A stretch of DNA of 64,000 nt from Dehalococcoidia bacterium (GCA_965204335.1 OZ241982.1:775462-839461), one strand, 5' to 3'. Numbered from the stretch's first letter, positions 31,813 through 57,565 are shown. The notes: a model not told the origin generated them from the letters alone. Numbers and translations: made by a program.

Positions 31813-31858
31813 GTTTCCGGTCCCCTCTCCCCGAGGGAGAGGGTTAGGGTGAGGGCCC
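31813..31858. repeat. Module C interspersed repeat abutting the tRNA 3' end
   Basis: gtttccggtcccctctccccgagggagagggttagggtgagggccc. Confidence 0.85.
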
Positions 31859-31875
31859 GGCCGCATCTGGAGCGC

Positions 31876-31950
31876 TGGAGCCGGCGGGGGGATTCGAACC
31901 CTCGGCCTACGGTTTACGAAACCGTTGCTCTACCTCTGAGCTACGCCGGC
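31876..31950 (-). tRNA. tRNA-Thr (anticodon CGU)
   Basis: Hand-folded 75-nt cloverleaf: acceptor GCCGGCG/CGCCGGC, D-arm GCTC-AGAGGTA-GAGC, anticodon arm ACGGT-TTCGTAA-ACCGT, T-loop TTCGAAT, discriminator U and encoded CCA. Confidence 0.85.
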
Positions 31951-32089
31951 AGCGACCTGAATCAGAGCGTATCGCAATCCCGGCAGACCGCCGCGTCTCC
32001 CGCCGGGCAGGCTCTCCGAGCACAAGCAGTCCCCGTTCTCCATTGAAAACGCCTCAACCTATCGACGTCTTCTCTGCATCAGATGCGGA

Positions 32090-32779
32090 GTGTTGCGTCT
32101 GCTCTATGGTCTACACATGTTCCGATTGACCGTCTCAACCATGGACGACGAGTTCGTCGCCCCCCTCCAACCCGGCCTGGAGCGCGAAGGCTTGCAGGTC
32201 GTCCGATACGCCCCGGCCGAAGGCAATGAGCCCGATCCCGCCGCGGCGCCGGATGTGCTCTTGCTCGACTGGCGTCACGCCGTGCCGGCCTCGAAGCCGT
32301 CCGAGGTGCAGGCCTGGCCCGACGCCATGCGCCTCGCCGTCCTGCGCCCCGCCGACACCCACCTGTTGGGGCCAACCCAGGAACTCGACGATTTCATGCT
32401 GGCGCCCGTGCATGAGGCGGAGCTGATCGCCAGGGTCCAGCTCGTGCTCTGGCGTCACGGACGGGCATTAACCCGGAACACCCTGGAGGCCGGCGACCTC
32501 GTCGTCGACACGTCCAACTACCAGGTCTTCGAAGGCGGCCGCTCGGTCTCGCTGACGTTCAAGGAGTTCGAGCTCCTGCGCTTCCTCATGACCCACAACC
32601 AGCAGGTCTTCACCAGGGAGACCTTGCTCAACCGGGTCTGGGGCTACAACTACTACGGAGGCTCGCGCACGGTCGACGTGCACATCCGCCGCCTGCGCTC
32701 GAAGCTCGAAGCCGGCGGCCAGCGCTACGTCGAGACCGTCCGAAACGTCGGCTACCGCTTCGCCCTCCCCCTCCGCTAA
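32090..32779 (+). CDS. Orphan OmpR-family winged-helix regulator with an atypical receiver domain (GlnR-like)
   Basis: C-terminal OmpR/PhoB wHTH (LTFKEFELLRFLMTHNQQVFTRETLLNRVWG...RTVDVHIRRLRSKL). Divergent N-terminal receiver-like domain. No histidine kinase adjacent. Upstream of glnA. Confidence 0.7.
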   Translation: MLRLLYGLHMFRLTVSTMDDEFVAPLQPGLEREGLQVVRYAPAEGNEPDPAAAPDVLLLDWRHAVPASKPSEVQAWPDAMRLAVLRPADTHLLGPTQELDDFMLAPVHEAELIARVQLVLWRHGRALTRNTLEAGDLVVDTSNYQVFEGGRSVSLTFKEFELLRFLMTHNQQVFTRETLLNRVWGYNYYGGSRTVDVHIRRLRSKLEAGGQRYVETVRNVGYRFALPLR

Positions 32780-32784
32780 CCCCC

Positions 32785-32846
32785 TCCGGTCCCCTCTCCC
32801 CCCGCTCCGCGGGGGGAGATGCCGCAGGCAGAGGGGGCTCCCCAGA
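32785..32846. repeat. Module C-start / module B hybrid repeat
   Basis: ccggtcccctctccccccgctccgcggggggagatgccgcaggcagagggggctcccc. Confidence 0.85.
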
Positions 32847-33144
32847 ACCCGAACAAGAGGCCCCGAACTCATCGCACGGGAAGCCCGGCTCGCCCAGGCC
32901 GCATCAGACCCGAACTGGCGCCGGCGGCATGCGCCTTTACAGACAAGCCGGATACACAACGTCGCGCCTTCGAAGCGCGGCGGCGGGCGTAACTCAGGTG
33001 TAACCCAGAACCGTCTGGTACGGCTTGCGCTGCCCATACGATGATGCGCAGCAAGCATTGATCCTGCGTGGTCGGCGGCAGTGCGCGTGTGCGACTCCAA
33101 CCGGCCCCCACTTTGACCGCGCAGAGCAAAGAGAGGCACAGCCC

Positions 33145-34563
33145 ATGGCAACCCTTGGCGACATTCAGAACCTGATCCAGGATCAGGGCATTCGTCGCGT
33201 CGACCTGCTGGTCACCGACCTGATCGGCCGCTGGCAGCACTTCAGCATTCCTGCCTCAAAGGTCGACGAAGACCTCGTCGAGCGCGGCCAGGGCTTCGAC
33301 GGCTCCTCGTTGCGCGGATTCCAGAGCATCGACGAATCCGACATGCTGCTCCGCCCCGACCTCGACAGCGCCCGGATCGATCCAACCATCGACACGCCCA
33401 CGCTCACCTTCATCTGCGATGTGCACGATCCGATCACCGGCGAACGCTACAGCCGCGACCCGCGCTACGTCGCGACGAAGGCCGAGCAGCATTTGATCGA
33501 CTCCGGCATCGCCGACCAGGTCTTCTTCGGCCCCGAGCTCGAGTTCTTTTTGTTCGACCACGTCCAGTTCCAGCTCTCGATCAACCAGGCCTTCTACGTC
33601 GTCGAGTCGGACGAGGCCGACTGGAACAGCGGCCGAGACGAGGACGACCACAACCTCGGCTACAAGATCCCGCCCAAGCAGGGCTACTCGCCCACCGCCC
33701 CCTTCGACACGCTCAGCGACATCCGCTGGGAGATGGCCGACGCGATGGGCAAGGTCGGGATGGAACTCGAAGTCCATCACCACGAGGTCGCGACCGGCGG
33801 CCAGGGCGAGATCGCCACGCGCTTCAACACCCTGCGCACCAAGGCCGACGAGACCCAGTGGTACAAGCACATCGTCCGCAACGTCGCCAGGGCCCACGGC
33901 AAGAGCGCGACCTTCATGCCCAAACCGCTCTTCGGCGACAACGGCACCGGCATGCACTGCCACCAGTCGTTGTGGAAGGACGGCTCCCCCCTCTTCTACG
34001 AAGGCGGCAAATACGCCGACCTCTCCGACACGGCCCGCCACTACATCGGCGGCCTGCTCAAGCACGGCTCCGCCCTGCTCGCCTTCTGCGCGCCGACCAC
34101 CAACTCGTACAAGCGACTCGTGCCCGGCTTCGAAGCGCCGATCTACCTCGCCTACTCGCAACGCAACCGCTCCGCCGCGGTCCGCATCCCCACCTACGAG
34201 TCCTCGCCCAACAGCAAGCGTCTCGAGTTCCGACCCCCCGACGCCTCGGCCAACACCTACCTCGCCTTCTCGGCGATGCTGATGGCCGGCCTCGACGGCA
34301 TCCGGAACCAGATCGAGCCGGGCGAGCCGGTCGACACCGACATCTACGAGCTCTCCGTCGAGGAGGCGGCCGGCATCCCCTCGGTGCCCCACTCGCTCGA
34401 AGGCTCGCTCGAAGCGCTGGCGGCCGATCACGACTTCCTGATGACAGGCGGCGTCTTCACCCAGGACCTGATCGACGAGTACCAGGACTTCAAGCTGACC
34501 GAGGCCCGCGACGTCTTCCAGCACCCCGTCCCGGCCGAGTTCTTCCACTACTACCACATCTAG
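33145..34563 (+). CDS. glnA: Glutamine synthetase type I (GlnA1-like, adenylylation-site type)
   Basis: GS-I beta-grasp and catalytic domains. Tyr in DIYELSVEE matches the adenylylation loop. AGAGAGG Shine-Dalgarno. Confidence 0.9.
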   Translation: MATLGDIQNLIQDQGIRRVDLLVTDLIGRWQHFSIPASKVDEDLVERGQGFDGSSLRGFQSIDESDMLLRPDLDSARIDPTIDTPTLTFICDVHDPITGERYSRDPRYVATKAEQHLIDSGIADQVFFGPELEFFLFDHVQFQLSINQAFYVVESDEADWNSGRDEDDHNLGYKIPPKQGYSPTAPFDTLSDIRWEMADAMGKVGMELEVHHHEVATGGQGEIATRFNTLRTKADETQWYKHIVRNVARAHGKSATFMPKPLFGDNGTGMHCHQSLWKDGSPLFYEGGKYADLSDTARHYIGGLLKHGSALLAFCAPTTNSYKRLVPGFEAPIYLAYSQRNRSAAVRIPTYESSPNSKRLEFRPPDASANTYLAFSAMLMAGLDGIRNQIEPGEPVDTDIYELSVEEAAGIPSVPHSLEGSLEALAADHDFLMTGGVFTQDLIDEYQDFKLTEARDVFQHPVPAEFFHYYHI

Positions 34564-34565
34564 CA

Positions 34566-34716
34566 TCCGGTCCCCTCTCCCTGAGGGAGAGGGCTAGGGT
34601 GAGGGCCCCGCTCCATGGGTGAAGATGCCGCGACTCTTCCCCTCTCCCCCCGCTTCGCGGGGGGAGCCTGCCCCGCACTTGATGCGGGGATGTCACGTAG
34701 TGACAGAGGGGGGCAA
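34566..34716. repeat. Composite repeat C plus B plus A plus tail between the two glnA genes
   Basis: ggtcccctctccctgagggagagggctagggtgagggcc, ...ctccccccgcttcgcggggggag, cctgccccgcacttgatgcgggg, atgtcacgtagtgacagaggggggc. Confidence 0.85.
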
Positions 34717-34735
34717 CCGCTGAACCCCAAATGAC

Positions 34736-36085: not shown

Positions 36086-36093
36086 CGCTCTCG

Positions 36094-37659
36094 CTAGCCG
36101 CCCACGACCGACGCCGACAGCGCCGCCGCCTGCTCGAACAGACCCTCGGTCGAGCTGTGGATCACGTCGAACAGCGGCGTCGGGTAGAGCCCGATGAAGA
36201 GCACGCCGGCGACCAGCACGATCAGCGCCCCGGCCAGTGGTCTCGAGACGTGGAAGCGGGCGCGATCCGAGCCCTCCGGCTCGTACAGGTACATCTGCTT
36301 GATCACCATCAGGTAGTAGTAGAGCGAGACGAACGAGACCGTCACACCGATCGCGCCCAACCAGAGGAAGCCGTTGTTGAAGGCCGCCTGGAAGATGATG
36401 AACTTGGTCGCGAAGCCGGCAAACAACGGCATCCCCGCCAACGAGAACAACGCGGCCGCAATCGAGAACGCAAGGAACGGCTGACGCTCGGCCAGCCCGC
36501 GCAGATCGATGATGTCGTCCCGGCCGGTGCGGTTATAGAACGCGATGATCGCGGCAAAGACGGCGATGTTGGTGGTCACGTAGCCGATCAGGTGCAGCAC
36601 CAGCGCCGAGGCCGCATCCTGCGACTGGGCGATATCGGCGGCGTTGAGCGCCACGATCCCGACAAGCAGGTATCCAACCTGAGAGATCGACGAATAGGCC
36701 ATCAGCCGCTTGAAGTTGGTCTGCTGCAACGCCATCAGGTTGCCGACGATCATCGTCACGGCGGCCAGGATGCCGACGAACCAGACCCACTCGGCCGCGG
36801 CGGGCAGGAATGCCTCGGAGAACAGGCGCAGGAAGAATGCGAAGGCTGCGGCCTTGCCGCCCGCGCTGAGGAACGCGGTGATCGGCAGCGGCGCGCCCTG
36901 GTAGGCGTCCGGCGTCCACTGGTGGAACGGCACGGCCGAGACTTTGAACCCCAGACCCGCGGTGATCAACACGAGCCCGATCAGCAGGCCCGGCCGGGTC
37001 GCATCGGGATCAACCCCGCCGCTGCCGCCGGCGAACGATGCGAGCTGGTCGGCGATGTTGCGCGTGCCTTCGACGACATCCGGTCCAATCGCCGAATAGG
37101 TCGTCGTTCCGGTGACGCCGTAGATCAGCGAGATGCCGTAGAGCATCAGCGCCGAGGAAAAGGCGCCGAGCAGCATGTACTTGAGCGAACCCTCGTTGGA
37201 GAACGGATTCAGCTTGTTGAATCCGACCAGGATGTAGAAGCTGAACGACAGCAGCTCGAGCGAGAGGTAGGCCGTGAGCAACTCGCGCGAAGCGGCAAGC
37301 AGCATCATTCCCAGCGTGGCGAAGACGATCAGGCCGTAGAACTCGGCGTGGTTCTTGAGCCGGTCGCCGGCGAACTGGACCGCCGCCATGACCGTGAAGA
37401 ACGCGATCCCGAGGAAGAAGACGCGGAACAGCACCGTGAAGTGGTCGACCGCGAGAACCGTGCCGAAGTCGTCGTTGGTGTTCCAATAGGCAACCGCCGT
37501 GACGATGGCGATCACGGCCAGCCCGGCGGCGGTGAAGTAACCGAACCACTTCTGGTCGACCTGACGGAACATCAACGCGGCCGCAATCACGACCACGGCC
37601 AGACCGGCCATGACGAATTCGGGGATGATCAGCTGATATTCGAGGTCCATCAGTGTCAC
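36094..37659 (-). CDS. nuoN: NADH-quinone oxidoreductase subunit N
   Basis: 14 transmembrane-helix antiporter-like subunit, last gene of the nuo operon. Confidence 0.85.
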   Translation of the reverse strand: MTLMDLEYQLIIPEFVMAGLAVVVIAAALMFRQVDQKWFGYFTAAGLAVIAIVTAVAYWNTNDDFGTVLAVDHFTVLFRVFFLGIAFFTVMAAVQFAGDRLKNHAEFYGLIVFATLGMMLLAASRELLTAYLSLELLSFSFYILVGFNKLNPFSNEGSLKYMLLGAFSSALMLYGISLIYGVTGTTTYSAIGPDVVEGTRNIADQLASFAGGSGGVDPDATRPGLLIGLVLITAGLGFKVSAVPFHQWTPDAYQGAPLPITAFLSAGGKAAAFAFFLRLFSEAFLPAAAEWVWFVGILAAVTMIVGNLMALQQTNFKRLMAYSSISQVGYLLVGIVALNAADIAQSQDAASALVLHLIGYVTTNIAVFAAIIAFYNRTGRDDIIDLRGLAERQPFLAFSIAAALFSLAGMPLFAGFATKFIIFQAAFNNGFLWLGAIGVTVSFVSLYYYLMVIKQMYLYEPEGSDRARFHVSRPLAGALIVLVAGVLFIGLYPTPLFDVIHSSTEGLFEQAAALSASVVGG

Positions 37660-39176
37660 CGTCCGGTCAGCGAACTGAGTGTGAACAGTCCGCCAATCTG
37701 GTCAACTCCGGGCAGTTCCGCAACCGTCGGCGCGATTCGGTCGACGAACGGGTCGGGCCAGACGCCCATCGCGATGATCGGCGCGATGAGCACGATCGCC
37801 GCGGCGATCTCCCAGCGAGTCAGTTCCTTCAGGTTCTCCCAGCGCGGGTTGAACGGCCCCAGCGCGGCTCGGCCCATCAGACGCAGCACGTAGATGGCGG
37901 TCAGCGCGGCTGAGAGGATGCCCAACGCGGCAAACAGCGGGAACGTGTCGATCGCGCCGACGAAGATGTGGAACTCGGCCACGAATCCCGACAGACCGGG
38001 TAAGCCGAGCGAGGTCAGGCCGGCAATACCGAAGAAGATCACGAACAGCGGCATCTTGCGCACCAGTCCGCCGAACACGCGGATGTCCCTCGTGTGCGCC
38101 TGGTCGTAGAGTCCGCCGACCATGGCGAAGAAGAGCGCGGTCATCACGCCGTGCGAGAACATCTGCAGCACGGCTCCGTTCACTCCGATGTTGTTCATCG
38201 TCCCCAGTCCCATCAGCACGAAGCCCATGTGAGAGACGGACGAGTAACCGATCACGAACTTGAGGTCGGTCTGATGGATCGCCGAGATCGCGCCGTAAAC
38301 CGCGGCGACGCCGCCCAACACGAGCAGAACGGGCATCCAGAAGTCGGTGCCGGCCGGCAGGATCTCCATGCCGAGGCGAATCACGCCGAATGCCCCGAGC
38401 TTCATCAGCACGCCGGCGTGAAGCATCGAGACGGCCGTCGGCGCGGCCACGTGGCCGTCGGGCGACCAGGTATGGAAGGGGAACAGACCGGCCAGGACCC
38501 CACAGCCGATCATGAAGAAGGGGAAGAACGTATTGGCGAAGCCGCGGCCGAACTCGATATCTCGCAGCACCGCCATGTCGAATGTGCCCGCGCCGGCCTC
38601 GGCGAAGACCGCGAAAATGCCGACGAAGATCAGCACCGAGCCGCCGACCAGGACCATGGTCAGCTTCATCGCGCCGTATTCCTTGTTGGTCGAGCCCCAG
38701 ATCACGATCAGCAGGTACATCGGCAGCACGGCGAGCTCGTAGGCGAAGAACCAGAAGAACAGGTCCTGGCCGATGTAGACGCCGTAGACGCCGGTGAACA
38801 GCGCCATGAAGAGGATGAAGAAGTCTTTCACCCGATGCGTGATCTTCCAGGAGACCAGTACGCCGGCGAAGCCGACCAGGCCGTTGAGCAGGACCATCGG
38901 CGCAGCGATACCGTCGACCGCGAGGTGCAGCGAAATGCCGTTCTCACCAAGGAAGCCGATGTTCTCAATCCACGGGTACTGCAGATCGAACTGGTAGCCG
39001 CCCTCGGCGAAGTCGTAGACGGCGAAGATCCAGATCGAGTCGATCAGCGTGGCGGTCGTGGCGATCAGTGCGATCCAGCGCACGACGTTGGCGTGCCGCG
39101 AGGGCACGAAGACCGTGAGCAGCATCGCCGCCCCGGGGATCAGCAAGAGCAGGAGGAGAGCTTCACCTGCGTCCAC
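37656..39176 (-). CDS. nuoM: NADH-quinone oxidoreductase subunit M
   Basis: Antiporter-like subunit. ATGA overlap with nuoN. Confidence 0.85.
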   Translation of the reverse strand: MDAGEALLLLLLIPGAAMLLTVFVPSRHANVVRWIALIATTATLIDSIWIFAVYDFAEGGYQFDLQYPWIENIGFLGENGISLHLAVDGIAAPMVLLNGLVGFAGVLVSWKITHRVKDFFILFMALFTGVYGVYIGQDLFFWFFAYELAVLPMYLLIVIWGSTNKEYGAMKLTMVLVGGSVLIFVGIFAVFAEAGAGTFDMAVLRDIEFGRGFANTFFPFFMIGCGVLAGLFPFHTWSPDGHVAAPTAVSMLHAGVLMKLGAFGVIRLGMEILPAGTDFWMPVLLVLGGVAAVYGAISAIHQTDLKFVIGYSSVSHMGFVLMGLGTMNNIGVNGAVLQMFSHGVMTALFFAMVGGLYDQAHTRDIRVFGGLVRKMPLFVIFFGIAGLTSLGLPGLSGFVAEFHIFVGAIDTFPLFAALGILSAALTAIYVLRLMGRAALGPFNPRWENLKELTRWEIAAAIVLIAPIIAMGVWPDPFVDRIAPTVAELPGVDQIGGLFTLSSLTGR

Positions 39177-39207
39177 GCTGTGCGCCTCTCTCTATCTCGT
39201 TCGCTTG

Positions 39208-41142
39208 CTATCCGCGCAGCAGGAAGGCGAGGCCGCCCGCGAGGGCGACGCCGACAACCATCAGCAGCGCGTAATCGGGAATCCGTCCGGTGACGTGGTA
39301 GCGCAGCCAGTATGCGGCGTAGCGCGTCGCGTCGGCCGGAGCATTGATCCCCGTGTCGTTGACAATCATGCGGTCGAACCAGGCCACGATGCGCGCCAGC
39401 GGCAGCATCGCGCGGTCGATGCCCCACTGGTAGGCCTCGTCGAAGTAGAACTTGTTCTCGATCACGGCGGCCAGTCGTGGCTGGAATTCGCGCACCGCCT
39501 GAGCGCGATGCGAGTTGCGGCCCCAGAAGAACCACCAGGCGGTCAGGAACCCGAGCAGCGAGACCGTGCCCGTCACCGCGGCGATCGAATTGGAGAAGTG
39601 GAAGTCATGCGGCTCGGGGAAGTAGACGTAGTTGTTGATGCCGCCGGGGAATCCGAGCGCGTCGCCGACCTGGTCGAAGGCCACAAAGCCGATCAGGAAG
39701 GTGAGGATGGTGAGAAAGACGAGCGGGATCAGGATCGTCGGAGCCGCCTCGCGAGCGCGGCGGATTACGGCGATGTCCTTGGGCGGTCCGAAGAAGGTGA
39801 TGATCACCAGCCGAGCCATGTAGAGCGCCGACAGGAACGCGGCCACCCCCAGCAGGATCGCGACGGCAGTGTTTGCCCCGCCGAGTGTGGCCACGAAGAT
39901 CTCGTCCTTGGAGAAGAATCCGGAGAGCGGCGGGATACCGGCCAGCGCGACCGACGAAATGATGAACGTTGACGCCGTCACCGGCATCCGCCACCAGAGT
40001 CCGCCCAGCTTGCGTGCGTCCTGTTCCTCAGTCATGTGGATCACGGATCCCGAGCCCAGGAAGAGACAGGCTTTGAAGAAGGCGTGCGTCAGCAGATGGA
40101 ACATGGCAATGCCGACGGCGCCGACCCCCAGGGCGACGAACATGAATCCCAGCTGCGACACAGTGGAGTATGCGAGCACTCGCTTGATGTCGTTCTGGGC
40201 GAGAGCCATCATCCCGGCCAACAGCGCGGTCGTCAGCCCGACGGCGAGTACCACGTTGGACGCGCCCGGCGTGACCTCGAAGACCGGCAGCAGTCGAGCG
40301 ACCAGGTAGACGCCGGCCACGACCATCGTGGCGGCGTGGATCAGCGCGGAGACCGGCGTGGGACCTTCCATCGCATCGGGCAGCCAGACGTGGAACGGCA
40401 CCTGGGCCGACTTGCCTGCCGCGCCGAGGAAGAGCATCAACGTCGACAGCGTCAGATAGCCATCGCCCATGACCTGGGGCAGGTCGTTGACGCGGCCAGC
40501 CTCGGCGGCGGCGATGATGTCGGAGATCTGGAAGGAGCCGGTCGCGCGCCAGAACAGGATGATGCCGATGAACAGGCCGACATCCCCGAGTCGCGTCGTG
40601 ACGAAGGCCTTCTTCGCCGCCTCGACGGCCGAGCGGCGCTCGTAGTAGAAGCCGATCAACAGGAATGAGCAGAGGCCCACGCCTTCCCAGGCGACGAACA
40701 TGAGCAGCAGGTTGTCGGCCAGGACCAGGGTCAGCATCATCGCCACGAACAGCGAAAGCACCGCGAAGTACCACCAGTAGCGCGGCTCCGGCTTGCCGTG
40801 ATGGCGCAGATAGTTGGTCGAATAGATGTTGACCATCAGCGCCACGGTCGCGACGACGAAGACCATCACCATCGCGATCGAGTCGACCGTGAAGCCGAGG
40901 CGGACGACGAAGCTGTCGAAGTTGATCCAGTCGGTGCCGACGTTGCGGATCCCACCGAGACCGGCGCCCAGCCAGTCGAGATGCGATTCGAGCACGAAGA
41001 AGAAGAGCACGAACACGGCCAGCGCCGCGCCGACCGAGATGAAGTCGCCGCCGCGCGGCAGCTTGCGGCCGAAGAGGAACAGGACAACGAATGAGATGGC
41101 CGGGATCGCCGGCAATATCCATGCGTGGTCAGCCCAGATCAT
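39208..41142 (-). CDS. nuoL: NADH-quinone oxidoreductase subunit L
   Basis: 644 aa antiporter-like subunit with a long C-terminal helix region. Confidence 0.85.
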   Translation of the reverse strand: MIWADHAWILPAIPAISFVVLFLFGRKLPRGGDFISVGAALAVFVLFFFVLESHLDWLGAGLGGIRNVGTDWINFDSFVVRLGFTVDSIAMVMVFVVATVALMVNIYSTNYLRHHGKPEPRYWWYFAVLSLFVAMMLTLVLADNLLLMFVAWEGVGLCSFLLIGFYYERRSAVEAAKKAFVTTRLGDVGLFIGIILFWRATGSFQISDIIAAAEAGRVNDLPQVMGDGYLTLSTLMLFLGAAGKSAQVPFHVWLPDAMEGPTPVSALIHAATMVVAGVYLVARLLPVFEVTPGASNVVLAVGLTTALLAGMMALAQNDIKRVLAYSTVSQLGFMFVALGVGAVGIAMFHLLTHAFFKACLFLGSGSVIHMTEEQDARKLGGLWWRMPVTASTFIISSVALAGIPPLSGFFSKDEIFVATLGGANTAVAILLGVAAFLSALYMARLVIITFFGPPKDIAVIRRAREAAPTILIPLVFLTILTFLIGFVAFDQVGDALGFPGGINNYVYFPEPHDFHFSNSIAAVTGTVSLLGFLTAWWFFWGRNSHRAQAVREFQPRLAAVIENKFYFDEAYQWGIDRAMLPLARIVAWFDRMIVNDTGINAPADATRYAAYWLRYHVTGRIPDYALLMVVGVALAGGLAFLLRG

Positions 41143-41170
41143 CAGCGCGTGCTCCCAATCACCGTTCGAG

Positions 41171-41485
41171 CTACCACTTGAGGAGATTCACTTCATCGAC
41201 GTTGGCCGTGGCTCGGTTGCGGAAGGTCCGCACGACGATGCCCAACGCCAGCGCCACCTCGGCGGCGGCGATGACGATGATGAAGAAGGCGAAGACGACG
41301 CCCGTGATGTTGCCGAAGTCGACGCGTCCGTAGACCGCGAACGCGACCATGTTCAGCGACACGGCGTTGAGCATCAACTCGACTGAGAGCAGGATCAGCA
41401 CGGCGTTGCGGCGGGTCAGGACGCCCATCGCGCCGATGGCGAAGAGGATCGCGTTGACCACGAGGATGTGCTCGAGGGCCGGCAT
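41171..41485 (-). CDS. nuoK: NADH-quinone oxidoreductase subunit K
   Basis: 104 aa, three transmembrane helices, conserved Glu residues. Confidence 0.85.
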   Translation of the reverse strand: MPALEHILVVNAILFAIGAMGVLTRRNAVLILLSVELMLNAVSLNMVAFAVYGRVDFGNITGVVFAFFIIVIAAAEVALALGIVVRTFRNRATANVDEVNLLKW

Positions 41486-42003
41486 CAGTTGTCGTCCTCA
41501 TCAGGTGAGGCGAGCATGATCGCGCCGTCCAGCGCAATCGAGAGCAGCACGCCGACGATGATGAAGGGCACGATCCAGACCGTGAAGATGGCGTCGCCGA
41601 TCTCTTGCAGACCGACGGGCTCCATGGCCGATGTGCTTTCCGGCGTGACCCAGGTCGTGGCGACGATCCCGCCGATCAGGGCGGCCATCAGGCCGAGTGA
41701 AGCGGCAATGCCCAACGGTCGGGAACGCCCGAACAACGCTTGCGGGCGTTCTCTCGCTCTGGTCAGCATGAGCGCGAACAGGATCAGGATGACCACCGCG
41801 GAGCCGTAGATCAGGAGCTGGACCAGGGCGATGAACTCGACGGTGAGGATCAGGTAGATGCCGGCCACGCCGGCCAGCGCAGCGATGAAGAACAGCGCGG
41901 CGTAGACGATATTGCCCGCTGTGATCACGCCGATCGCGGAGACCAGCATGACCACGGCCAGGATCCAGAACACCACCTGAGTCGCGGTGACGCCGTCCTC
42001 CAC
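41485..42003 (-). CDS. nuoJ: NADH-quinone oxidoreductase subunit J
   Basis: 172 aa membrane subunit. Follows nuoH directly, with no nuoI between. Confidence 0.8.
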   Translation of the reverse strand: MEDGVTATQVVFWILAVVMLVSAIGVITAGNIVYAALFFIAALAGVAGIYLILTVEFIALVQLLIYGSAVVILILFALMLTRARERPQALFGRSRPLGIAASLGLMAALIGGIVATTWVTPESTSAMEPVGLQEIGDAIFTVWIVPFIIVGVLLSIALDGAIMLASPDEDDN

Positions 42004-42030
42004 GCGCTTGCTCCTCTTCTCGTCTGTCCG

Positions 42031-43239
42031 TTAGTCGCCGCCGGCCTCGACCGGGGTGACCTCGGGAGCGGTAATCACGCGCGGCGTCGCCGGCGTGGTC
42101 TGAACGGTTCGAGTGCCCGCGCCCTGCTTGCGACGCATGATGTAGAAGACCAATCCACCCAGCGCGACCAGCAGGCCGAACGAGACCAGACCCACCACCC
42201 AGTCGGCGCCGCCGTAGGCGAGGATGATCCCGTTGGCGATCACCTGGACGATCGCGAAGGGCAGCAGCACCTTCCAGGAGAACGCCATCAACTGATCGAT
42301 GCGCAGGCGCGGGAACAGCGCCCGCGAGCCGATCACGAGCACGATCATCACAGATGTCTTGACGAACGTCAGCACGATCTGCAGGCCCAGCCCGACATCC
42401 GCGCCGAAGGGCCAATTCCAGCCGCCGAGGAAGAGCGACGAGGCGAGCACCACGAGCAGGAAGAGCGCCGTGTACTCGGCCAGGAAGAACATCCCCCAGC
42501 GCATCCCGGAATATTCGACGAAGTAGCCGCCCACGACTTCCGACTCGGCAATCGGCATGTCGAATGGCGGGCGATGCAGTTCGGCCAGCATGCCGACGAT
42601 GAAGATGAAGAAGCCCAGCGGCTGCAGGAGGATGTACGGCGTCGTCGTCTGATCGCCGACGATCGCGTTGATCGAACCGGCGGCCGAGGCGTCGCCGTCG
42701 ACGGCGATTCGTCCGGCGGCGACCATCACGACGGCAACGATGATCAGCAGCATCGGGATCTCATAGGAAATCGCCTGCGCTGCGGCCCGCACGCCGCCGA
42801 GCAGGGCGTACTTGTTGTCCGAGCCCCAGGCAGCCATCACCACGCCGACGATGTTCAGTCCCAGGACGCCGAAGACGAAGAGCAATCCGAGATTGAGGTC
42901 GCGGATGAACCACGTCTCCGTAAACGGCATCGGCACAAAGACGAGGAAGACCGGCACAAAGGCCATGTACGGCGCGAGCTCGAACGCCCAGCGATCGGCG
43001 GTGATTGGCCGGACATCTTCCTTGGTGACGAGCTTGAGCGCATCGGCGATCGATTGCAGCGTGCCAATCGGACCGGTGCGGGTTGGACCAACGCGGGCCT
43101 GGAAGCGGGCCAGGATCTTGCGCTCGAGGTAGATCAGCGCGAACGCCATGATCGTCATCAAGGCGACGATGAAGATGACGCGCAACAGCGCGTCGATCCA
43201 ATCGGGCATGCTGACGCCGGCGAACTCGCTCAGGACCAT
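42031..43239 (-). CDS. nuoH: NADH-quinone oxidoreductase subunit H, with a C-terminal extension of about 40 aa
   Basis: Conserved ND1 core (ERKILARFQ.R.GP). Extra Thr/Pro-rich C-terminal tail. Confidence 0.85.
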   Translation of the reverse strand: MVLSEFAGVSMPDWIDALLRVIFIVALMTIMAFALIYLERKILARFQARVGPTRTGPIGTLQSIADALKLVTKEDVRPITADRWAFELAPYMAFVPVFLVFVPMPFTETWFIRDLNLGLLFVFGVLGLNIVGVVMAAWGSDNKYALLGGVRAAAQAISYEIPMLLIIVAVVMVAAGRIAVDGDASAAGSINAIVGDQTTTPYILLQPLGFFIFIVGMLAELHRPPFDMPIAESEVVGGYFVEYSGMRWGMFFLAEYTALFLLVVLASSLFLGGWNWPFGADVGLGLQIVLTFVKTSVMIVLVIGSRALFPRLRIDQLMAFSWKVLLPFAIVQVIANGIILAYGGADWVVGLVSFGLLVALGGLVFYIMRRKQGAGTRTVQTTPATPRVITAPEVTPVEAGGD

Positions 43240-43304
43240 CTAGGCCATCCCCACGGGCTGCTCTGGCTGCCCACGCAGGTTACACGCGATTCCGCTTACG
43301 ACCA

Positions 43305-44483
43305 TTAGCGGTCAACCTCGCAGAGCACGATGTCGATCGAACCGAGCGCCACCACGGCGTCGGCGAGGTAGGTGTTGATCACCTGCGGCTTCAGCGAGGA
43401 GAGGTTGTGGAAGCATGGTGAGCGCATCTTCACGCGCCACGGCTTGTCGGTCCCGTCGGAGACCATGTAGATGCCGTACTCGCCGCGCGGATTCTCCTGG
43501 CGCATGTAGATCTCGCCGGGCGGAGGACGCAGACGGGCCGGCATTCGCTCCGGCTCGATCGCACCCGAGGTTGGCATCTGGTCGAGCGCCTGGCGCAGGA
43601 TCGTGACCGACTGGCGCATCTCTTCGAGCCGCACGAGATAACGGTCGTAGACGTCGCCGCGCTCGCCGACCGGAATCTCCCAGTGGAAGCGGTCGTAAAT
43701 CGAGTAGGGCTCGTCGACCCGCAGATCGAACGGCACGCCTGAGGCTCTCAGCATCGGGCCGGTGACGCCGAACGAGATTGCTTCTTCGGCCGTCATCGCA
43801 CCGACATCGCGGCAACGGGCGACAAAGACCTCGTTGTTGGTCATCAGGTCGTCCACGTCTGAGATCCCGATTTCAACCTGGTCGAGCACCCAGTGCGAGT
43901 CCTCGATGAAGGTCTCATGCGGCTCCCAGGCGAGCCCGCCGACGCGGAAGTAGTTGTACATGATCCGGTCGCCGCAGACCGCTTCGAACAGGTCCTGGAT
44001 GCGTTCGCGCTCCTTGAACGTCCAGGTGAACGCGGTACCGAAGTAGCCCACGTCGGTGCCGAATGCGCCCATGAACATGAAGTGCGAGAGCAGCCGGTTG
44101 AACTCGGCCAGGATCAGGCGGACGTACTCGGCCCGCTCTGGAATCTCGATCCCGGCCAGGCGCTCGACGGCGTTGACGTAGACCCACTCGGAGTTAAACG
44201 CGGCGAGATAGTCGGTGCGGTCCTGGTAGCCCAAGGCGCCGCGATAGTCGAGATTCTCGGACAGCTTCTCTCCGCCGCGGTGCATGTAGCCGATGTACGG
44301 GATCGCGTCCTTGACGATCTCGCCGTCCACGGTCAGCACCATGCGGAAGACGCCGTGCGTCGCCGGGTGCTGCGGCCCGATGTTGATGTTCATGTCGACG
44401 GTTTCGAACTCGCGCTCGACGACGACGGGTTCGGTGAGTACTTCACCTTCAACGGTTCGCTGGACCATGGGGGCTACTCCCAA
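43305..44483 (-). CDS. nuoD: NADH-quinone oxidoreductase subunit D
   Basis: 49-kDa subunit, NiFe-hydrogenase large-subunit fold (MNINIGPQHPATHG). Confidence 0.9.
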   Translation of the reverse strand: MGVAPMVQRTVEGEVLTEPVVVEREFETVDMNINIGPQHPATHGVFRMVLTVDGEIVKDAIPYIGYMHRGGEKLSENLDYRGALGYQDRTDYLAAFNSEWVYVNAVERLAGIEIPERAEYVRLILAEFNRLLSHFMFMGAFGTDVGYFGTAFTWTFKERERIQDLFEAVCGDRIMYNYFRVGGLAWEPHETFIEDSHWVLDQVEIGISDVDDLMTNNEVFVARCRDVGAMTAEEAISFGVTGPMLRASGVPFDLRVDEPYSIYDRFHWEIPVGERGDVYDRYLVRLEEMRQSVTILRQALDQMPTSGAIEPERMPARLRPPPGEIYMRQENPRGEYGIYMVSDGTDKPWRVKMRSPCFHNLSSLKPQVINTYLADAVVALGSIDIVLCEVDR

Positions 44484-44543
44484 ATCCTCGTCGTGTTCAT
44501 CGTCATGTCGCGACCGTCAACCCCTCTGGCAATCGAGTGCCGA

Positions 44544-45548
44544 CTACTCGCCGCGCAACTGGGCGCGTCGGGCGGCGGCAAGCTCGCGGCCGAGTCTGAC
44601 CCGTTCTGATTGCGCGGCAGCGCGGCCTTCGGGATCTTCTTCGGCGTCGGGGATCGTCGGCAGTTCGGGCGGCGGCGGCGCCGGCGGACGGTCGTCCTGG
44701 GCAGGAGCCGCCGACGGCGCAGCCTCGGCCGCCGCGGGAGCGGCGGCCGGAGCCGCGGCCGGGCGCGGCGGCGGCGCGGCGCCCTCGGGTCGCGGACCGC
44801 CGGCAGGCGGCGCGCCGGCCAGGCGCTCGGCCCGGCGCACAGCGGCGAGCTCTCGGGCGCGGCGGACGCGCTCGGCCTGCTCGGCCCGGCGCTCCTCGCG
44901 CTCCTCTTCGGTCATGTCCTCGACCCGCTTGCGTTCGGGCGCGGCGGCGGCGGCCGCTTCCGGAGCCGCCTCTTCCTCCTCCGCCGGCTCCGGCGGTGGG
45001 TACTCCTTGGTGAAAAACTCGACATCGACGCCCTGCTCCATCTCGATCGGCGCGAGCGGATGGCTCTTGCGCAACGGATGGATGTCGAGGTCTTCGTCGA
45101 GCAGCAGGTTGCGCGGATCGGGATGGCCGATGAACTCGATCCCGAACATCTCGCGGCATTCGCGCTCGGCCCAGTCGGCCATCTCGTAGATGTCGGTCAC
45201 CGACTCGACGACCGCGCCGTCGGATGGAAGCCAGGCCTTGATCGTGACGGCCTGGCGCAGCGGAATCGAGTAGAGGTGATAGACGATCTCGAGGCCGCGA
45301 TCTTCCCAGTCGACCGCGGTTTGATTGCGCAGCAGGTTCATCTGCAGACGCTCGTCCTCGCGGCCGCGCTCGAGCACCTCGTGGATCGAGTCGGGAGGAA
45401 TCGTCAGCGCGACGTCGTCGCCCTTGGTCAGCGCCGCGTCGAAACTGACGAGCGGCATGACCTCGCGATAGGTGTCGGCGATCGAACCGGGAGGCGGCTC
45501 GTGACTCGGCGGTTCCTCGGGTGCGGCCGGCGTACGACGTGACGTCAT
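44544..45548 (-). CDS. nuoC: NADH-quinone oxidoreductase subunit C, with a low-complexity C-terminal extension of about 150 aa
   Basis: 30-kDa subunit core, then an Ala/Pro/Glu/Arg-rich tail containing two copies of an ER.RRA.ELAA.RRA.L motif. Confidence 0.8.
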   Translation of the reverse strand: MTSRRTPAAPEEPPSHEPPPGSIADTYREVMPLVSFDAALTKGDDVALTIPPDSIHEVLERGREDERLQMNLLRNQTAVDWEDRGLEIVYHLYSIPLRQAVTIKAWLPSDGAVVESVTDIYEMADWAERECREMFGIEFIGHPDPRNLLLDEDLDIHPLRKSHPLAPIEMEQGVDVEFFTKEYPPPEPAEEEEAAPEAAAAAAPERKRVEDMTEEEREERRAEQAERVRRARELAAVRRAERLAGAPPAGGPRPEGAAPPPRPAAAPAAAPAAAEAAPSAAPAQDDRPPAPPPPELPTIPDAEEDPEGRAAAQSERVRLGRELAAARRAQLRGE

Positions 45549-45554
45549 GGTTGG

Positions 45555-46127
45555 TTAGTAACCCCGCGCGCGTTCTTCGACGATCTTCTCCTGCAGGGCA
45601 AGCAAGCCGTCGATCAGAGCTTCGGGACGGGGCGGGCAACCGGGCACGTAGACATCGACCGGGACAATATTGTCGACGCCCTGCACGACGCGGTCGTACT
45701 GGGTGTAGGGGCCGCCGTTGGTCGCGCAGGCGCCCATCGAGATCACCCATTTGGGGTGCGGCATCTGCTCGTAGAGCAGCTTGACCGCCGGGGCCATCTT
45801 CTTGGTCACCGTGCCCGCCACGATCATCACATCGGACTGGCGCGGAGACGGCCAGGGCACGATTCCGAAGCGGTCGAGGTCGTGATTGGCCATGTAGGTG
45901 GCGATCATCTCGATCGCGCAGCAGGCGAGTCCGAAGGTCATCGGCCAGAGCGATGACTTGCGCGCCGCCGAGATCAGCGCCTCCGCCGGCGCCTGCATCA
46001 CCCCGGGCAGCACGACCTTGTACGGGACCGTCGGAGGCTGGTCGTCGATCGCCTGCAAGCGCAGCGATTCCGGCGAGATGATCACAGGCGTGGGATCGCC
46101 CATATGTGGTGGCTGGGAGGTCGTCAT
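45555..46127 (-). CDS. nuoB: NADH-quinone oxidoreductase subunit B
   Basis: N2 cluster Cys ligands (GLACCAIEM...). 20-kDa subunit. Confidence 0.9.
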
Positions 46128-46152
46128 ACGCCGCGTCTCGCTGTCTGTTCCA

Positions 46153-46542
46153 TCAGTTTCGTTGCCAGTCGAACACGCCCTTGCGCCAGGCGTAGGCCAG
46201 CGCGATCAGCAGCGTGCCGATGAAGAGAACCATCTGCCAGAGAATCACCTTGCCGAACTCGGGCTCGTCCATCAGGCCGAGGAAAGACACGGCCCAGGGC
46301 AAGAGGAAGACGACCTCCACATCGAACACGAGAAACAGCAACGCATAGGTGTAGTAGCGGACGTGGACCTGGGCCCAGTTGCGGCCGATCGGCAGCATGC
46401 CGCATTCGTAGACTTGGCCCTTGAGCGCCGTGCGCCGCTGCGGAGCGAGCAGCTTGGTCGCCAGCAGCGCCGTCAGGACGAGCATGATCCCCACGGGGAT
46501 CGCGACCAGGACCGCGCCATAGTTCTCGAACAGCTCAGACAC
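46153..46542 (-). CDS. nuoA: NADH-quinone oxidoreductase subunit A
   Basis: 129 aa, three transmembrane helices. First gene of the operon. Confidence 0.85.
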
Positions 46543-46656
46543 GTCTACCTGCCGTCACCCGCTCTGAAAATGCGCACCAGATTCCCCAGTGCGAACAGAT
46601 CGTACCCGCGCGGCATAATCAGGGTCAATGTTTGGCCGACGAAACAGGCGAGCCCA

Positions 46657-46714
46657 TCCTCCGATCCCATCTCCCCCCGCTGTGCGGGGGGAGATGCCGA
46701 AGGCAGAGGGGGGC
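46657..46714. repeat. Module B interspersed repeat upstream of the nuo operon
   Basis: cctccgatcccatctccccccgctgtgcggggggagatgccgaaggcagaggggggc. Near-identical to 6078..6137 apart from the loop. Confidence 0.85.
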
Positions 46715-46766
46715 AGCGGCTTTGCCCACAGGTCGGCAGTGGAGTTGCTTGCAAAGGATGTCGAAG

Positions 46767-47258: not shown

Positions 47259-47327
47259 GGCGCGTTACTCTGCTGCTGTAGACGACCACGTTCAGATCAA
47301 GTGCATTGCGCACGTGAGGAGCACGAT

Positions 47328-48470
47328 ATGGGACCGCTCAGCGGCATTCGCATCATTGAATTCCAGGGCATCGGACCGGGCCCCTTCTGCGGCATGATCC
47401 TGTCCGACATGGGCGCCGACATCGTCCGCATCGACCGCGCCTCGAACGCTCCGGGTGAAGCGCCGGCCAATCCGCCCGGTGACCTGCTCGCCCGCGGCCG
47501 GCGCTCGATCGCGCTCGACCTCAAGAACCCCGAGGGCGTCGAGGTCGCGCTCAAGCTGATCGAAGGCGCCGACGCGCTCTTCGAGGGCTTCCGTCCGGGC
47601 GTGATGGAACGTCTGGGTCTGGGCCCGGACGTCTGCCTCGAGCGCAATCCCAAGATCGTCTACGGACGCATGACCGGCTGGGGTCAGGAAGGTCCGTACG
47701 CGCAGATGGCCGGCCACGACATCAACTACATCTCGCTGGCCGGTGCGCTGGCCCCGATCGCGCGCAAGGGACAGGTTCCGGTGCCGCCGCTCAACCTGGT
47801 CGGCGACTTCGGCGGCGGCGGCATGTACCTCGCCGTCGGCATGCTCGGCGCCCTGATCGAAGCGCAGCGCTCGGGCAAGGGCCAGGTCGTCGACGCAGCC
47901 ATGGTCGACGGCGCATCCTCGCTGATCACCTCCGTCCACGCCGGACTCGCGACCGGCAGCTGGCGGCGCGGACGCGCGGCCAACGTGCTCGACACCGGCG
48001 CGCACTTCTACGACGCCTACGAGACGCTGGACGGAAAGTTCGTCTCGATCGGCTCGATCGAGCCGCAGTTCTACGCCGAGCTGCTGCACCTGCTCGGCCT
48101 CGAGAACGAGGAGCTCCCGCACCAGATGGACAACACCCGCTGGCCCGAGCTCAAGGATCGCGTGACCGCCATCTTCCGCACCAAGACCCGCGCCGAGTGG
48201 GAAACCATCTTCGAGGGCTCCGACGTCTGCTTCGGCCCCGTCCTCGAACCGTGGGAAGCCCCCAACCACCCGCACGCCAAGGCCCGTGGAGCATTCGAAG
48301 AGGTCGCCGGCGTCGTCCAACCCGCCCCAGCCCCGCGCTTTAGCCGCACCGAATCGAAGATCCAGGGCCCGCCCGCCTACCCGGGCGAGCACACCGACGA
48401 GATCCTCGCCGAAATCGGCCTCAACGGCTCCCAGGGGGAACAACTCAAAACCGCCGGCGCCGTCGCCTGA
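47328..48470 (+). CDS. CoA-transferase family III protein (CaiB/BaiF / alpha-methylacyl-CoA racemase-like)
   Basis: N-terminus GIRIIEFQGIGPGPFCGMILSDMGADIVRIDR and catalytic Asp region. GAGGAG Shine-Dalgarno upstream of the ATG at 47328. Confidence 0.85.
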   Translation: MGPLSGIRIIEFQGIGPGPFCGMILSDMGADIVRIDRASNAPGEAPANPPGDLLARGRRSIALDLKNPEGVEVALKLIEGADALFEGFRPGVMERLGLGPDVCLERNPKIVYGRMTGWGQEGPYAQMAGHDINYISLAGALAPIARKGQVPVPPLNLVGDFGGGGMYLAVGMLGALIEAQRSGKGQVVDAAMVDGASSLITSVHAGLATGSWRRGRAANVLDTGAHFYDAYETLDGKFVSIGSIEPQFYAELLHLLGLENEELPHQMDNTRWPELKDRVTAIFRTKTRAEWETIFEGSDVCFGPVLEPWEAPNHPHAKARGAFEEVAGVVQPAPAPRFSRTESKIQGPPAYPGEHTDEILAEIGLNGSQGEQLKTAGAVA

Positions 48471-48506
48471 CGCATTGATTCGCACGGACGACTACGACCT
48501 GACGAC

Positions 48507-48676
48507 TCCCTCTCTCCCCCCGCTCCGCGGGGGGAGATGCCGAAAGCCCGCCCCCGGCCTGAACGGGGGGCAGAGGGGGCTCCCGCCAGGCAACCAACAG
48601 CCACCTCCCTCTCCCTCCGGGAGCGAGAAACCGAACCTCCCTCTCCCCCTGGGAGAGGGCCGGGGTGAGGGCTCCG
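48507..48676. repeat. Composite repeat cluster (module B, a cccccggcctgaacgggggg hairpin, ctccctccgggag, module C)
   Basis: tccctctctccccccgctccgcggggggagatgccgaaagcc ... cctctccccctgggagagggccggggtgagggctcc. Confidence 0.85.
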
Positions 48677-48690
48677 GAAAGCAACACCCA

Positions 48691-49737
48691 ATGGCCTCAA
48701 TCACCGACTACCGCCTCTACCCCGCCATCCAGGCCCAACCATCCGAGTGCGCCAAGCTCCTCAGCAGCGCCCAACCCTTCGACCGCGCGGCCCAAACCCT
48801 CTCGGACGCCTCCCGCGTCTGGACCGTCGGCATCGGCACCTCGTTCAACGCCGCCAACGCCGCCAGTTGGATGCTGCGCGCCGCCGGACTCGAAGCGCGC
48901 CCGCTCACGAGCTTCGAGTTCGCCACCTGGCCGACGGTCACCGACGGCGACGCCGTTCTCCTCTTCGCCCACACCGGCCGCAAGACCTACAGCGGCAACT
49001 CGCTGGCGCTCTGCATTGAGCGCGGCATCCCCGTCGTGCTGATCACCAGGGTCGAGACCGAATTCGACCTCGACTCCTTGCCCGACAGCGTGACCGTGCT
49101 GCACACGACCACGCAGGACCCGTCCTCGATGTACACGATCTCCCACACCACGGCGATGTCCGCGGCGGCGAAGATCGCCGACCTCGTCTCACCCGGCGCG
49201 ATAGGCGATATCTCGGAGATTCCATCGGCGCTCGCCTCGGCACTCGCACTGGAGGACGAAATTGCGGAGTTGGCGTCCGAGTGGTCGTCGGGGGCAATAG
49301 TCGCCCTGGGCGCAGGACCGATGTTGACCGCCGCCGAGGAGGCGCACATCAAGATCGCCGAAGCCGCGCGCCGCGCCGTCCGTCACCAGGAGCCGGAGTC
49401 CTTCCTCCACGGCCCCGTCGTCCAGATCACCGACTCCGACCGTATCCTCACCTTCGCCGCCAACGACGACTCGGCCGACCGGACCCGCGCGATCACGCAG
49501 TTGACGATGGACAACGGCTGCTCAGCCGCCTGGGTCGCGCCCGAGAGCGTGTCCGCCCCCGAATCCGCGCGTCACCTCACGCTGGCCGACCTAACACCTG
49601 AGTTGCTCGCGATCCCCGCCGTCGTCCCCGCGCAGCTGCTCGCCGGCCACCTCGCCGCCAACGACGGCGTCAACGCCGACGACTTCCGCACCGACGTCCC
49701 CGAGTTCCGCCAGGCGCTCTCAAAGCTGTCGCTCTAG
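48691..49737 (+). CDS. SIS (sugar isomerase) domain protein, AgaS/GlmS-isomerase-like
   Basis: Two SIS-like halves (VWTVGIGTSFNAANAASW; IVALGAGPMLTAAEEAHIK). ATG at 48691 just after the repeat cluster. Confidence 0.75.
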   Translation: MASITDYRLYPAIQAQPSECAKLLSSAQPFDRAAQTLSDASRVWTVGIGTSFNAANAASWMLRAAGLEARPLTSFEFATWPTVTDGDAVLLFAHTGRKTYSGNSLALCIERGIPVVLITRVETEFDLDSLPDSVTVLHTTTQDPSSMYTISHTTAMSAAAKIADLVSPGAIGDISEIPSALASALALEDEIAELASEWSSGAIVALGAGPMLTAAEEAHIKIAEAARRAVRHQEPESFLHGPVVQITDSDRILTFAANDDSADRTRAITQLTMDNGCSAAWVAPESVSAPESARHLTLADLTPELLAIPAVVPAQLLAGHLAANDGVNADDFRTDVPEFRQALSKLSL

Positions 49738-49748
49738 CGACCAGCCGT

Positions 49749-49791
49749 TTCAGTCCCCTCTCCTTCCGGGAGAGGGCTAGGGTGAGGGTCC
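49749..49791. repeat. Module C repeat in the 40-nt convergent gap. It overlaps the valS stop codon and last four codons.
   Basis: tttcagtcccctctccttccgggagagggctagggtgagggtccc. The valS C-terminal GPSP plus TAG stop are read from ggtgagggtccc on the minus strand. Confidence 0.85.
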
Positions 49792-57490: not shown

Positions 57491-57565
57491 CCCTCTCTCC
57501 CCTCCCTTCCCCTCTCCCCCCGCTTCCAGCGGGGGGAGATGCCGCAGGCAGAGGGGGGCTCCCAA
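57491..57565. repeat. Module B interspersed repeat between prs and a small hypothetical gene
   Basis: ccctctctcccctcccttcccctctccccccgcttccagcggggggagatgccgcaggcagaggggggctccc. Confidence 0.85.

Follow-up and report, generated by a model that had tools for sequence, protein, structure and literature searches.

In a 64,000-nucleotide stretch of the genome of a Dehalococcoidia bacterium (GCA_965204335.1 OZ241982.1:775462-839461; hereafter, the window), a repeat initially dubbed “module C” combines four evenly spaced G3 tracts with a C-rich hairpin arm and had been interpreted, in a sequence-only reading, as a strand-specific hairpin/G-quadruplex (G4) switch at the 3' ends of genes. By sequence, module C is four copies of the already described BoxC repeat, also known as PIT or TM-ECO. 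A hairpin combined with a mirror repeat (a DNA triplex design) accounts for the evidence presented here better than does a G4 switch at gene ends that is specific to one strand. We consider it fairly likely that BoxC is a dispersed repeat constrained to such a triplex-type design on single-stranded DNA; its four G-tracts and the accompanying G4 potential are real and are probably an incidental by-product.

The motif GGGNNNGGGNNNGGGNNNGGG has four exact matches in the whole 64-kb window, all on the + strand (0.05 expected by chance; none of 100 dinucleotide-preserving shuffles reaches four). The sequence-only reading had reported these same four motifs, quoting the sequences correctly, with positions that were 1-4 nt too low. 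The hairpin that it described as competing for the first two G-tracts is found as well, in that a C-rich arm precedes all four copies: the arm CCCTCTCCC with a 3-nt loop stands exactly 5' of copies 1-3 (0 expected), where it forms a perfect 9-bp hairpin with the first nine bases of the G-rich part, and copy 4 has the arm CCCTCTCCT, with one mismatch in block 1, a slightly different loop and an 8-9 bp stem.

A blastn search of complete E. coli genomes with 44 nt from copy 2 produced matches in 5,400 of the 5,426 genomes, at a median of 17 places per genome (best match: 97.4% identity, 86% coverage). The BoxC repeat of the 1990s is what Hoyne and Maher (2000/2002) called PIT, for potential intrastrand triplex, and is also the TM-ECO element of Holder et al. 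(2015, PMC4666352); the latter authors gave the general pattern CCCTCNCCC N3-6 GGGNGAGGG N3 GGGNGAGGG, with one stem mismatch allowed, and distinguished types A (loop TTA) and B (loop CCG). Copies 1-3 match this pattern exactly and copy 4 matches it with the one mismatch in block 1. Copy 1 has the type A core and copy 3 the type B core, their three conserved blocks being identical to those of the perfect-stem E. coli copies (PMC4666352, Table 1), with loop 1 alone differing from the listed E. coli copies. The likeness extends to the three-block layout, loop lengths, intergenic location and the inverted doublets, which are frequent family-wide and occur in relatives of this genome, although there are none in this window. 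The window copies differ from TM-ECO in being all on one strand, in sitting in mosaics with lineage-specific hairpin modules, and in having, in two cases, CTA as loop 2, which is absent from the 23 K-12 copies (CTA occupies loop 2 in 30 of the 180 copies of the cross-phylum sample described below). The G-rich 21-mers dGGGAGAGGGTTAGGGTGAGGG and dGGGAGAGGGCCGGGGTGAGGG are those of HPG1 and HPG2 of Kaplan et al. (2016, PMC5100583), who noticed the upstream C-rich arm that competes with the G4 and proposed a “G-quadruplex-hairpin-duplex switch”; we found no structural difference between the HPG elements and the window copies. The copy 3 21-mer is also listed, as the Klebsiella G4-forming oligo KP-PGQ-5, in a 2024 review (PMC11170735). 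At the level of sequence, the four copies have every defining feature of BoxC / PIT / TM-ECO and are the same objects as HPG1/HPG2. Thus, the element is already known, and the hairpin/G4 competition is real yet was already published in 2016.

Covariation among the blocks bears on what is conserved in this element. Three blocks make up the unit: CCCTCTCCC, which consists of pyrimidines; GGGAGAGGG, its Watson-Crick complement; and GGGTGAGGG, a purine block that mirrors the second one. The match of GGGTGAGGG to GGGAGAGGG fits the antiparallel purine-motif triplex code (G.G:C, A.A:T and T.A:T). Variants were sought in the viral collection by a scan in which the middle triplet of block 2 had to differ from AGA, whereas those of blocks 1 and 3 could take any sequence. 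Where block 2 is GGGGGAGGG (51 loci, complete listing), block 1 is CCCTCCCCC and block 3 is GGGTGGGGG or GGGAGGGGG, that is, GGG[T/A]GGGGG; where block 2 is GGGAGGGGG (14 loci), block 1 is CCCCCTCCC and block 3 is GGGGGAGGG. After deduplication, with only Watson-Crick-compensated hairpins counted, 15 of the 29 copies with GGA in block 2 follow the mirror rule (3% expected for a random triplet), none is a direct repeat, and 8 have the canonical TGA/AGA; all 5 copies with AGG in block 2 follow the mirror rule, with neither direct repeats nor canonical triplets among them. Under the mirror rule, an A in block 2 may face A or T in block 3, as in the purine-motif triplex code; a direct repeat is never seen. 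Among the copies with the canonical hairpin, just 4 loci in the entire viral collection have a base other than A at position 6 of block 3, and position 4 is T, or A in 47 copies, with C or G found only two or three times. The conserved, mirror-covarying bases are those of the would-be G4 loops 1 and 3, and loop 2 is free. A G4 does not predict the mirror covariation of blocks 2 and 3. A Watson-Crick hairpin between blocks 1 and 3, which would need a direct repeat, was rejected because block 3 of the variants mirrors block 2 and is in no case its direct copy.

The same three-block layout recurs in the most frequent repeat of the window (the lineage-specific companion repeat, D1), the sequence of which is unrelated to BoxC. 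It has a hairpin, TCTCCCCCCGC / GCGGGGGGAGA, and all nine cases show AGAGGGGG at 10-41 nt past this hairpin; its third block is the mirror of its purine arm; loop 2 is TGCCGMAGGC or one of the larger nested hairpins GCCCCGCACTTGATGCGGGG and GTCACGTAGTGAC. Because the companion repeat lacks four G3 tracts, the layout common to the two families is pyrimidine / purine / mirror-purine and not G4 spacing. As a caveat, the third block of the window companion copies could pair with CCCCTCT in the 5' flank, an option not open to the metagenome copies, which are flanked by CTTTCT.

As regards the fold, the element's G-rich portion is a canonical G4 motif, as had been proposed from the sequence: the four 21-mers have four tracts of at least 3 G with loops within 1-7 nt, and G4Hunter scores of 1.76-1.95, above the 1.5 cutoff, and oligos of this sequence, HPG2 (PMC5100583) and KP-PGQ-5 (PMC11170735), give G4-type circular dichroism (CD) signals and melting in K+, with the CD of HPG2 changing between K+ and Li+/Mg2+ (PMC5100583). 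For the complete element, the G4 does not appear to be the dominant fold. The RNA hairpin is predicted at -15.5 to -18.4 kcal/mol versus -12.6 kcal/mol for the RNA G4 (ViennaRNA with G4 energies), that is, 3-6 kcal/mol more stable, and is predicted in both transcripts (-17.2 and, for the antisense, -17.0 kcal/mol). The full-length DNA oligo yields 18 sharp imino signals in nuclear magnetic resonance (NMR) spectra, which were read as an intrastrand triplex, excluding a G4, and a polymerase stops in front of the element in vitro (PMC4666352).

Placement relative to genes was examined in a cross-phylum sample obtained by an exact-pattern scan, with one genome per species (at least 120 loci and 180 copies; the counts given for this sample refer to the matches listed). 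In tandem spacers, the G-rich strand is sense in 52 cases versus antisense in 49 (p = 0.84), and 67 copies are nearer to the upstream stop versus 34 nearer to the downstream start (p = 0.001); convergent spacers outnumber divergent ones 46 to 6 (p = 1e-8). The viral-contig sample contains 35 sense and 39 antisense copies. Family-wide, 34 of the 41 pairs of adjacent copies within 200 nt are inverted. We detected no link between BoxC orientation and local GC skew, used as a proxy for the replication strand (84:96 family-wide). In E. coli, TM-ECO copies are always intergenic, with no strand bias (PMC4666352), and no consistent strand or gene-side rule was found for HPG1/HPG2 (PMC5100583). The copies prefer 3' intergenic space in either orientation, and an orientation preference is lacking family-wide. 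These ratios, together with the occurrence of BoxC on both strands in lineage contigs, do not bear out the notion of a strand-specific switch at 3' ends, which calls for a consistent sense orientation. The more limited statement that the G-rich strand is sense to the upstream gene is literally true at four loci of the window; however, two of these are convergent and hence antisense to the other gene, leaving only copies 2 and 3 as informative tandem cases, and four of four copies fall on one strand with a two-sided probability of 1/8. The + strand bias of the window can only be called local and is not reproduced in related contigs. The sequence-only reading had itself named random orientation along with degenerate G-tracts as the outcome that would speak against a switch: orientation is random across the family, and the G-tracts are not degenerate.

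The exact core is present in Planctomycetota, Chloroflexota, Cyanobacteria, Nitrospirota, Myxococcota, Desulfobacterota, Rubrivirga, and alpha-, beta- and gamma-Proteobacteria, on contigs with a G+C content from 42% to 74%, and 174 of the 180 copies are intergenic. Conservation in the flanks is limited to pyrimidines at -2 and -1 and to G or T at +1; the length of loop 1 ranges from 3 to 8 nt, and loop 2 is free (TTA, CTA, CTG, TTG, ACA, CCG and others). An earlier census counted 3,610 TM-ECO copies in 262 genomes, and the supplement lists Azospirillum, Bradyrhizobium, Caulobacter and Methylobacterium (PMC4666352). BoxC is also found on 478 plasmids, 274 of them conjugative or mobilizable, and in more than 120 IMG/VR contigs. 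Carriage by phages, which the IMG/VR matches might seem to indicate, is not mirrored in curated phage genomes; because only 5 of the 50,697 curated genomes match, the IMG/VR matches probably include host flanks. Two Campylobacter phages, MG065686.1 and MG065691.1, have a 36-nt BoxC match at 100% identity, which is odd for a low-GC host and could reflect contamination or real transfer.

Closer to the window, related contigs were collected with a 27-mer of the companion repeat as a lineage probe; it occurs in 50 metagenome loci, which were retrieved, and in none of 240 foreign loci, from all of which the other modules of the window are absent as well. The 50 loci contain 12 BoxC copies, on both strands and including four inverted pairs; neither BoxC (7:5) nor the companion repeat (23:31) showed a relation to GC skew in these contigs. 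In L359, which is one of these loci and an orthologue of the glnA region (84-88% identity in the genes), the glnA spacer contains the companion repeat and lacks BoxC, so that copy 2 is missing. Likewise, E. coli genomes differ in whether their adk-hemH spacer has a 157-nt block containing BoxC. BoxC copies thus come and go between close relatives. A search for a clean pair of filled and empty sites that would reveal target-site duplications yielded none: adk-hemH is a block replacement rather than a clean insertion, and the L359 glnA spacer is too diverged to define insertion ends.

Under the explanation that we favour, the unit of about 33-38 nt comprises a pyrimidine block, its complement and a third purine block mirroring the second, which allows a single DNA strand to fold into a hairpin whose major groove takes up the third block, giving an intrastrand triplex of the purine-motif, reverse-Hoogsteen type. 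The four G3 tracts would follow from the composition of the blocks rather than being a selected feature. The triplex, formed on transiently single-stranded DNA, may be the target of selection or propagation. Copies build up in the spacers downstream of genes, whichever their orientation and frequently in the form of inverted doublets, and turn over fast. The behaviour of BoxC is that of a dispersed, REP-like or selfish repeat, not that of a locus-specific regulator.

Several alternatives have to be weighed against this explanation. An RNA hairpin/G4 switch in 3' UTRs (untranslated regions), acting in the sense transcript to control 3'-end stability or termination and resembling the proposal of Kaplan et al. 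(2016), would account for the sense orientation of the G-rich strand after four + strand genes of the window and for the preference for 3' intergenic space, and draws further support from the G4Hunter scores, the K+-dependent CD shift of HPG2 (PMC5100583) and the listing of the identical 21-mer as a G4 former (PMC11170735). Yet, with orientation unbiased in the family, in the viral sample and in E. coli, the mRNA carries the C-rich strand at half of the copies; BoxC lies on either strand in contigs sharing the companion repeat; the close relative L359 has not retained copy 2; the predicted RNA hairpin beats the G4; the conservation and mirror covariation of the G4 “loops” are left unexplained; and, according to the Maher follow-up as relayed in PMC4666352, PIT elements showed no terminator activity in E. 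coli; earlier work cited in that paper detected neither promoter nor terminator activity. We regard such a switch as improbable. An RNA hairpin that protects mRNA 3' ends irrespective of orientation, in the manner of REP elements and with the third block as a passenger, agrees with the hairpin predicted in both transcripts and with the location of copies near stop codons and away from divergent promoter regions; there is no T-tract 3' of the element, so no intrinsic terminator, but it could block exonucleases. This explanation is unlikely all the same: it leaves unexplained a third block that is as invariant as the stem and covaries with block 2, and it has to contend with rapid gain and loss between relatives.

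The G4 could also act at the DNA level, on a displaced strand or the lagging-strand template, as an obstacle to replication or transcription or as a landing site for a protein. The perfect motif with its G4-type CD in K+ and the polymerase stop before the element (PMC4666352) agree with this scenario, which nevertheless seems to us a poor candidate, considering that the 18 imino signals of the full element were assigned to a triplex and not to a G4 (PMC4666352), that no replication-strand bias is seen by the GC-skew proxy, that the loop covariation has no place in it, and that the companion family has the pyrimidine-purine-mirror layout without four G3 tracts. Finally, extreme sequence conservation across phyla and the reported association of BoxC with local rearrangements (PMC4666352) might be expected if BoxC were recognised as a double strand, without any folded structure, by a conserved DNA-binding protein or by a recombinase. 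Mirror repeats, however, are not the symmetry used by dimeric DNA-binding proteins, no known transcription-factor motif was found (Kaplan et al., PMC5100583), and loop 1 varies from 3 to 8 nt while the sequence of loop 2 is free, making this the least probable of the alternatives, and a very unlikely one.

The triplex-type design itself faces a number of difficulties. In vivo footprinting with dimethyl sulfate revealed no triplex protection, and the duplex wins once the complement is present (Holder et al., PMC4666352). The covariation comes from a few subfamilies, amounting to about two independent triple changes plus the T/A alternation, and copying from variant master copies could inflate the counts. 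The structure is not perfect at every copy because 8 of the 29 variant hairpins keep the canonical third block, giving a mismatched triplet, and because the commonest E. coli type has a conserved hairpin mismatch. All four window copies, and 12 of the 13 purine-rich repeat elements, are on the + strand. Finally, neither a mechanism of copying nor a target-site duplication nor an associated enzyme came to light.

Among known repeats, BoxC resembles the repetitive extragenic palindromic (REP) sequences, BIMEs and REPINs, which are likewise short, GC-rich, palindromic intergenic repeats that form mosaics, prefer 3' intergenic space and frequently occur as inverted doublets. BoxC differs from REPs in the lack of a conserved GTAG-type 5' tetranucleotide (the flanks were checked), in the presence of the third, mirror block, and in its conservation across phyla, whereas REPs are species-specific. 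We know of no RAYT partner for BoxC. An Rfam search of the window at gathering thresholds produced tRNA only and, at permissive thresholds, only a sub-threshold match to whalefall-1 (RF01762), the consensus of which shares the three blocks, CUCUCC/GGAGAG as a hairpin followed downstream by AGgGuGAGGAC. Membership in this family was rejected: positions 34571-34606 score 19.7 bits versus a gathering score of 37, and the 24-nt middle section of the model is absent from the window copies. Whalefall-1 is more probably a relative whose loop 2 is long, and the “sRNA” motif published under this name may be a long-loop-2 repeat of the BoxC type. Intrinsic (Rho-independent) terminators were considered as well and rejected, with no terminator-like site at any copy and no enrichment of T in the 3' flank.

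The four copies occupy four different spacers (Table 1). Genes were called with a small codon-usage caller, the results of which match the ENA calls of a 99.98%-identical metagenome contig (L121). By Pfam, the flanking genes encode a GYD protein, a response regulator, two glutamine synthetases, a family III CoA-transferase and a SIS protein; the ValRS gene, also a flanking gene, comes from the ENA calls of L121. A further, probable BoxC copy is rearranged: as read from the sequence, a hairpin module replaces loop 2, and there is no intact G4 motif.

Table 1. Repeat copies and associated features of the window, with their surroundings
Feature	Position	Strand	Sequence or loop	Surroundings
GGGNNNGGGNNNGGGNNNGGG match, copy 1	31835-31855	+	GGGAGAGGGTTAGGGTGAGGG	
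GGGNNNGGGNNNGGGNNNGGG match, copy 2	34585-34605	+	loop 2 CTA	
GGGNNNGGGNNNGGGNNNGGG match, copy 3	48651-48671	+	loop 2 CCG	
GGGNNNGGGNNNGGGNNNGGG match, copy 4	49768-49788	+	loop 2 CTA	
BoxC/TM-ECO copy 1, type A	31823..31855	+	CCCTCTCCC-CGA-GGGAGAGGG-TTA-GGGTGAGGG	between GYD gene (31438-31770, +) and tRNA-Thr (31876-31950, -); 53 nt past GYD stop, 21 nt beyond convergent tRNA-Thr 3' end
BoxC copy 2	34573..34605	+	loop 2 CTA	tandem; 10 nt past glnA stop (34563), 131 nt before second glutamine synthetase gene (34736)
BoxC copy 3, type B	48639..48671	+	loop 2 CCG	tandem; 169 nt past CoA-transferase III stop (48470), 20 nt before SIS ATG (48691)
BoxC copy 4	49756..49788	+	loop 2 CTA; block 1 CCCTCTCCT	convergent; 19 nt past SIS stop, overlaps valS stop codon (- strand)
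Probable rearranged BoxC copy	5288..5341	+	CCCCTCTCCCC-GA-GGGAGA, 23-nt hairpin module AGTCTGCCCCGCACTTGATGCGG, then AGGGTGAGAG	AGTCTGCCCCGCACTTGATGCGG module in place of loop 2
Companion repeat	2232-2274		TCTCCCCCCGC - loop - GCGGGGGGAGA - 10-41 nt - AGAGGGGGG	
Companion repeat	6094-6136		as above	
Companion repeat	32795-32837		as above	
Companion repeat	34643-34712		as above	
Companion repeat	46670-46712			
Companion repeat	48513-48579			
Companion repeat	57513-57557			
Companion repeat	58070-58118			
Companion copy within valS	50628-50670	-	CCCCCCGCTTCGCGGGGGGAGATGCCGCAGGCAGAGGGGGG	in frame inside valS (49777-52566, -)
Hairpin module	5300-5322		GCCTGCCCCGCACTTGATGCGGGG	replaces degenerate BoxC loop 2
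Hairpin module	5992-6014		GCCTGCCCCGCACTTGATGCGGGG	
Hairpin module	6166-6189		GCCTGCCCCGCACTTGATGCGGGG	
Hairpin module	34666-34689		GCCTGCCCCGCACTTGATGCGGGG	in companion repeat loop 2
nuo operon	36094-46542	-		

At copy 4, the TAG at 49777-49779, the complement of loop 2, is the valS stop codon, and the last residues of the protein, P-S-P, come from the third block. Such a stop is provided by the complement of BoxC loop 2 (TTA/CTA/TCA giving TAA/TAG/TGA) to a gene that enters from the G-rich side, with a ...P-S-P* tail; 5 of 95 genes of the cross-phylum sample have their end exactly at this point (loci L240, L127, L162, L166 and L226), and in this sample 58% of loop-2 triplets are reverse-complement stop codons. 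The valS gene also contains a complete companion copy, which encodes PPASRGEMPQAEGG, placed between the conserved NKLWN motif, immediately preceding it, and the EDRWILSRL helix; this copy is present in L121, too, and looks like a tolerated repeat insertion in an essential gene. The placements of the GCCTGCCCCGCACTTGATGCGGGG hairpin module, in loop 2 of a companion repeat and in place of that of the degenerate BoxC copy, suggest nested insertion into repeat loops. The + strand of the window has a strong negative GC skew, -0.06 to -0.16, over most of its length, with values of about 0 over the - strand nuo operon (36-47 kb), and 12 of the 13 purine-rich repeat arms of the two families are on this C-skewed strand. 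The operon is apparently nuoA-B-C-D-H-I-(J)-K-L-M-N, without nuoE/F/G, i.e., of the 11-subunit type, as assigned from the sizes of the open reading frames and two Pfam hits on L121.

For annotation, these results mean that the motif should be recorded as a BoxC/TM-ECO repeat and not as a new, riboswitch-like 3' UTR G4 of glnA, GYD, CaiB and SIS, which prevents a false lead. For the family, the mirror covariation and the orientation-free, 3'-intergenic placement narrow the options, making an RNA G4 less likely and a structure of single-stranded DNA more so. Non-coding and about 33 nt long, the element keeps 27 fixed positions from Enterobacteria to Planctomycetes, Chloroflexi and Cyanobacteria. 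It is possible, if doubtful, that the conserved thing is the triplex code and not a particular sequence, given that block 3 of BoxC variants follows block 2 as its mirror and that the unrelated TCTCCCCCCGC / GCGGGGGGAGA ... AGAGGGGGG repeat shares the layout, and that the code is read by a structure-reading process on single-stranded DNA. If so, a replication-linked or HUH-type enzyme recognising base triples would create or propagate a class of “triplex repeats,” and such a process would explain the near identity of BoxC across bacterial phyla.

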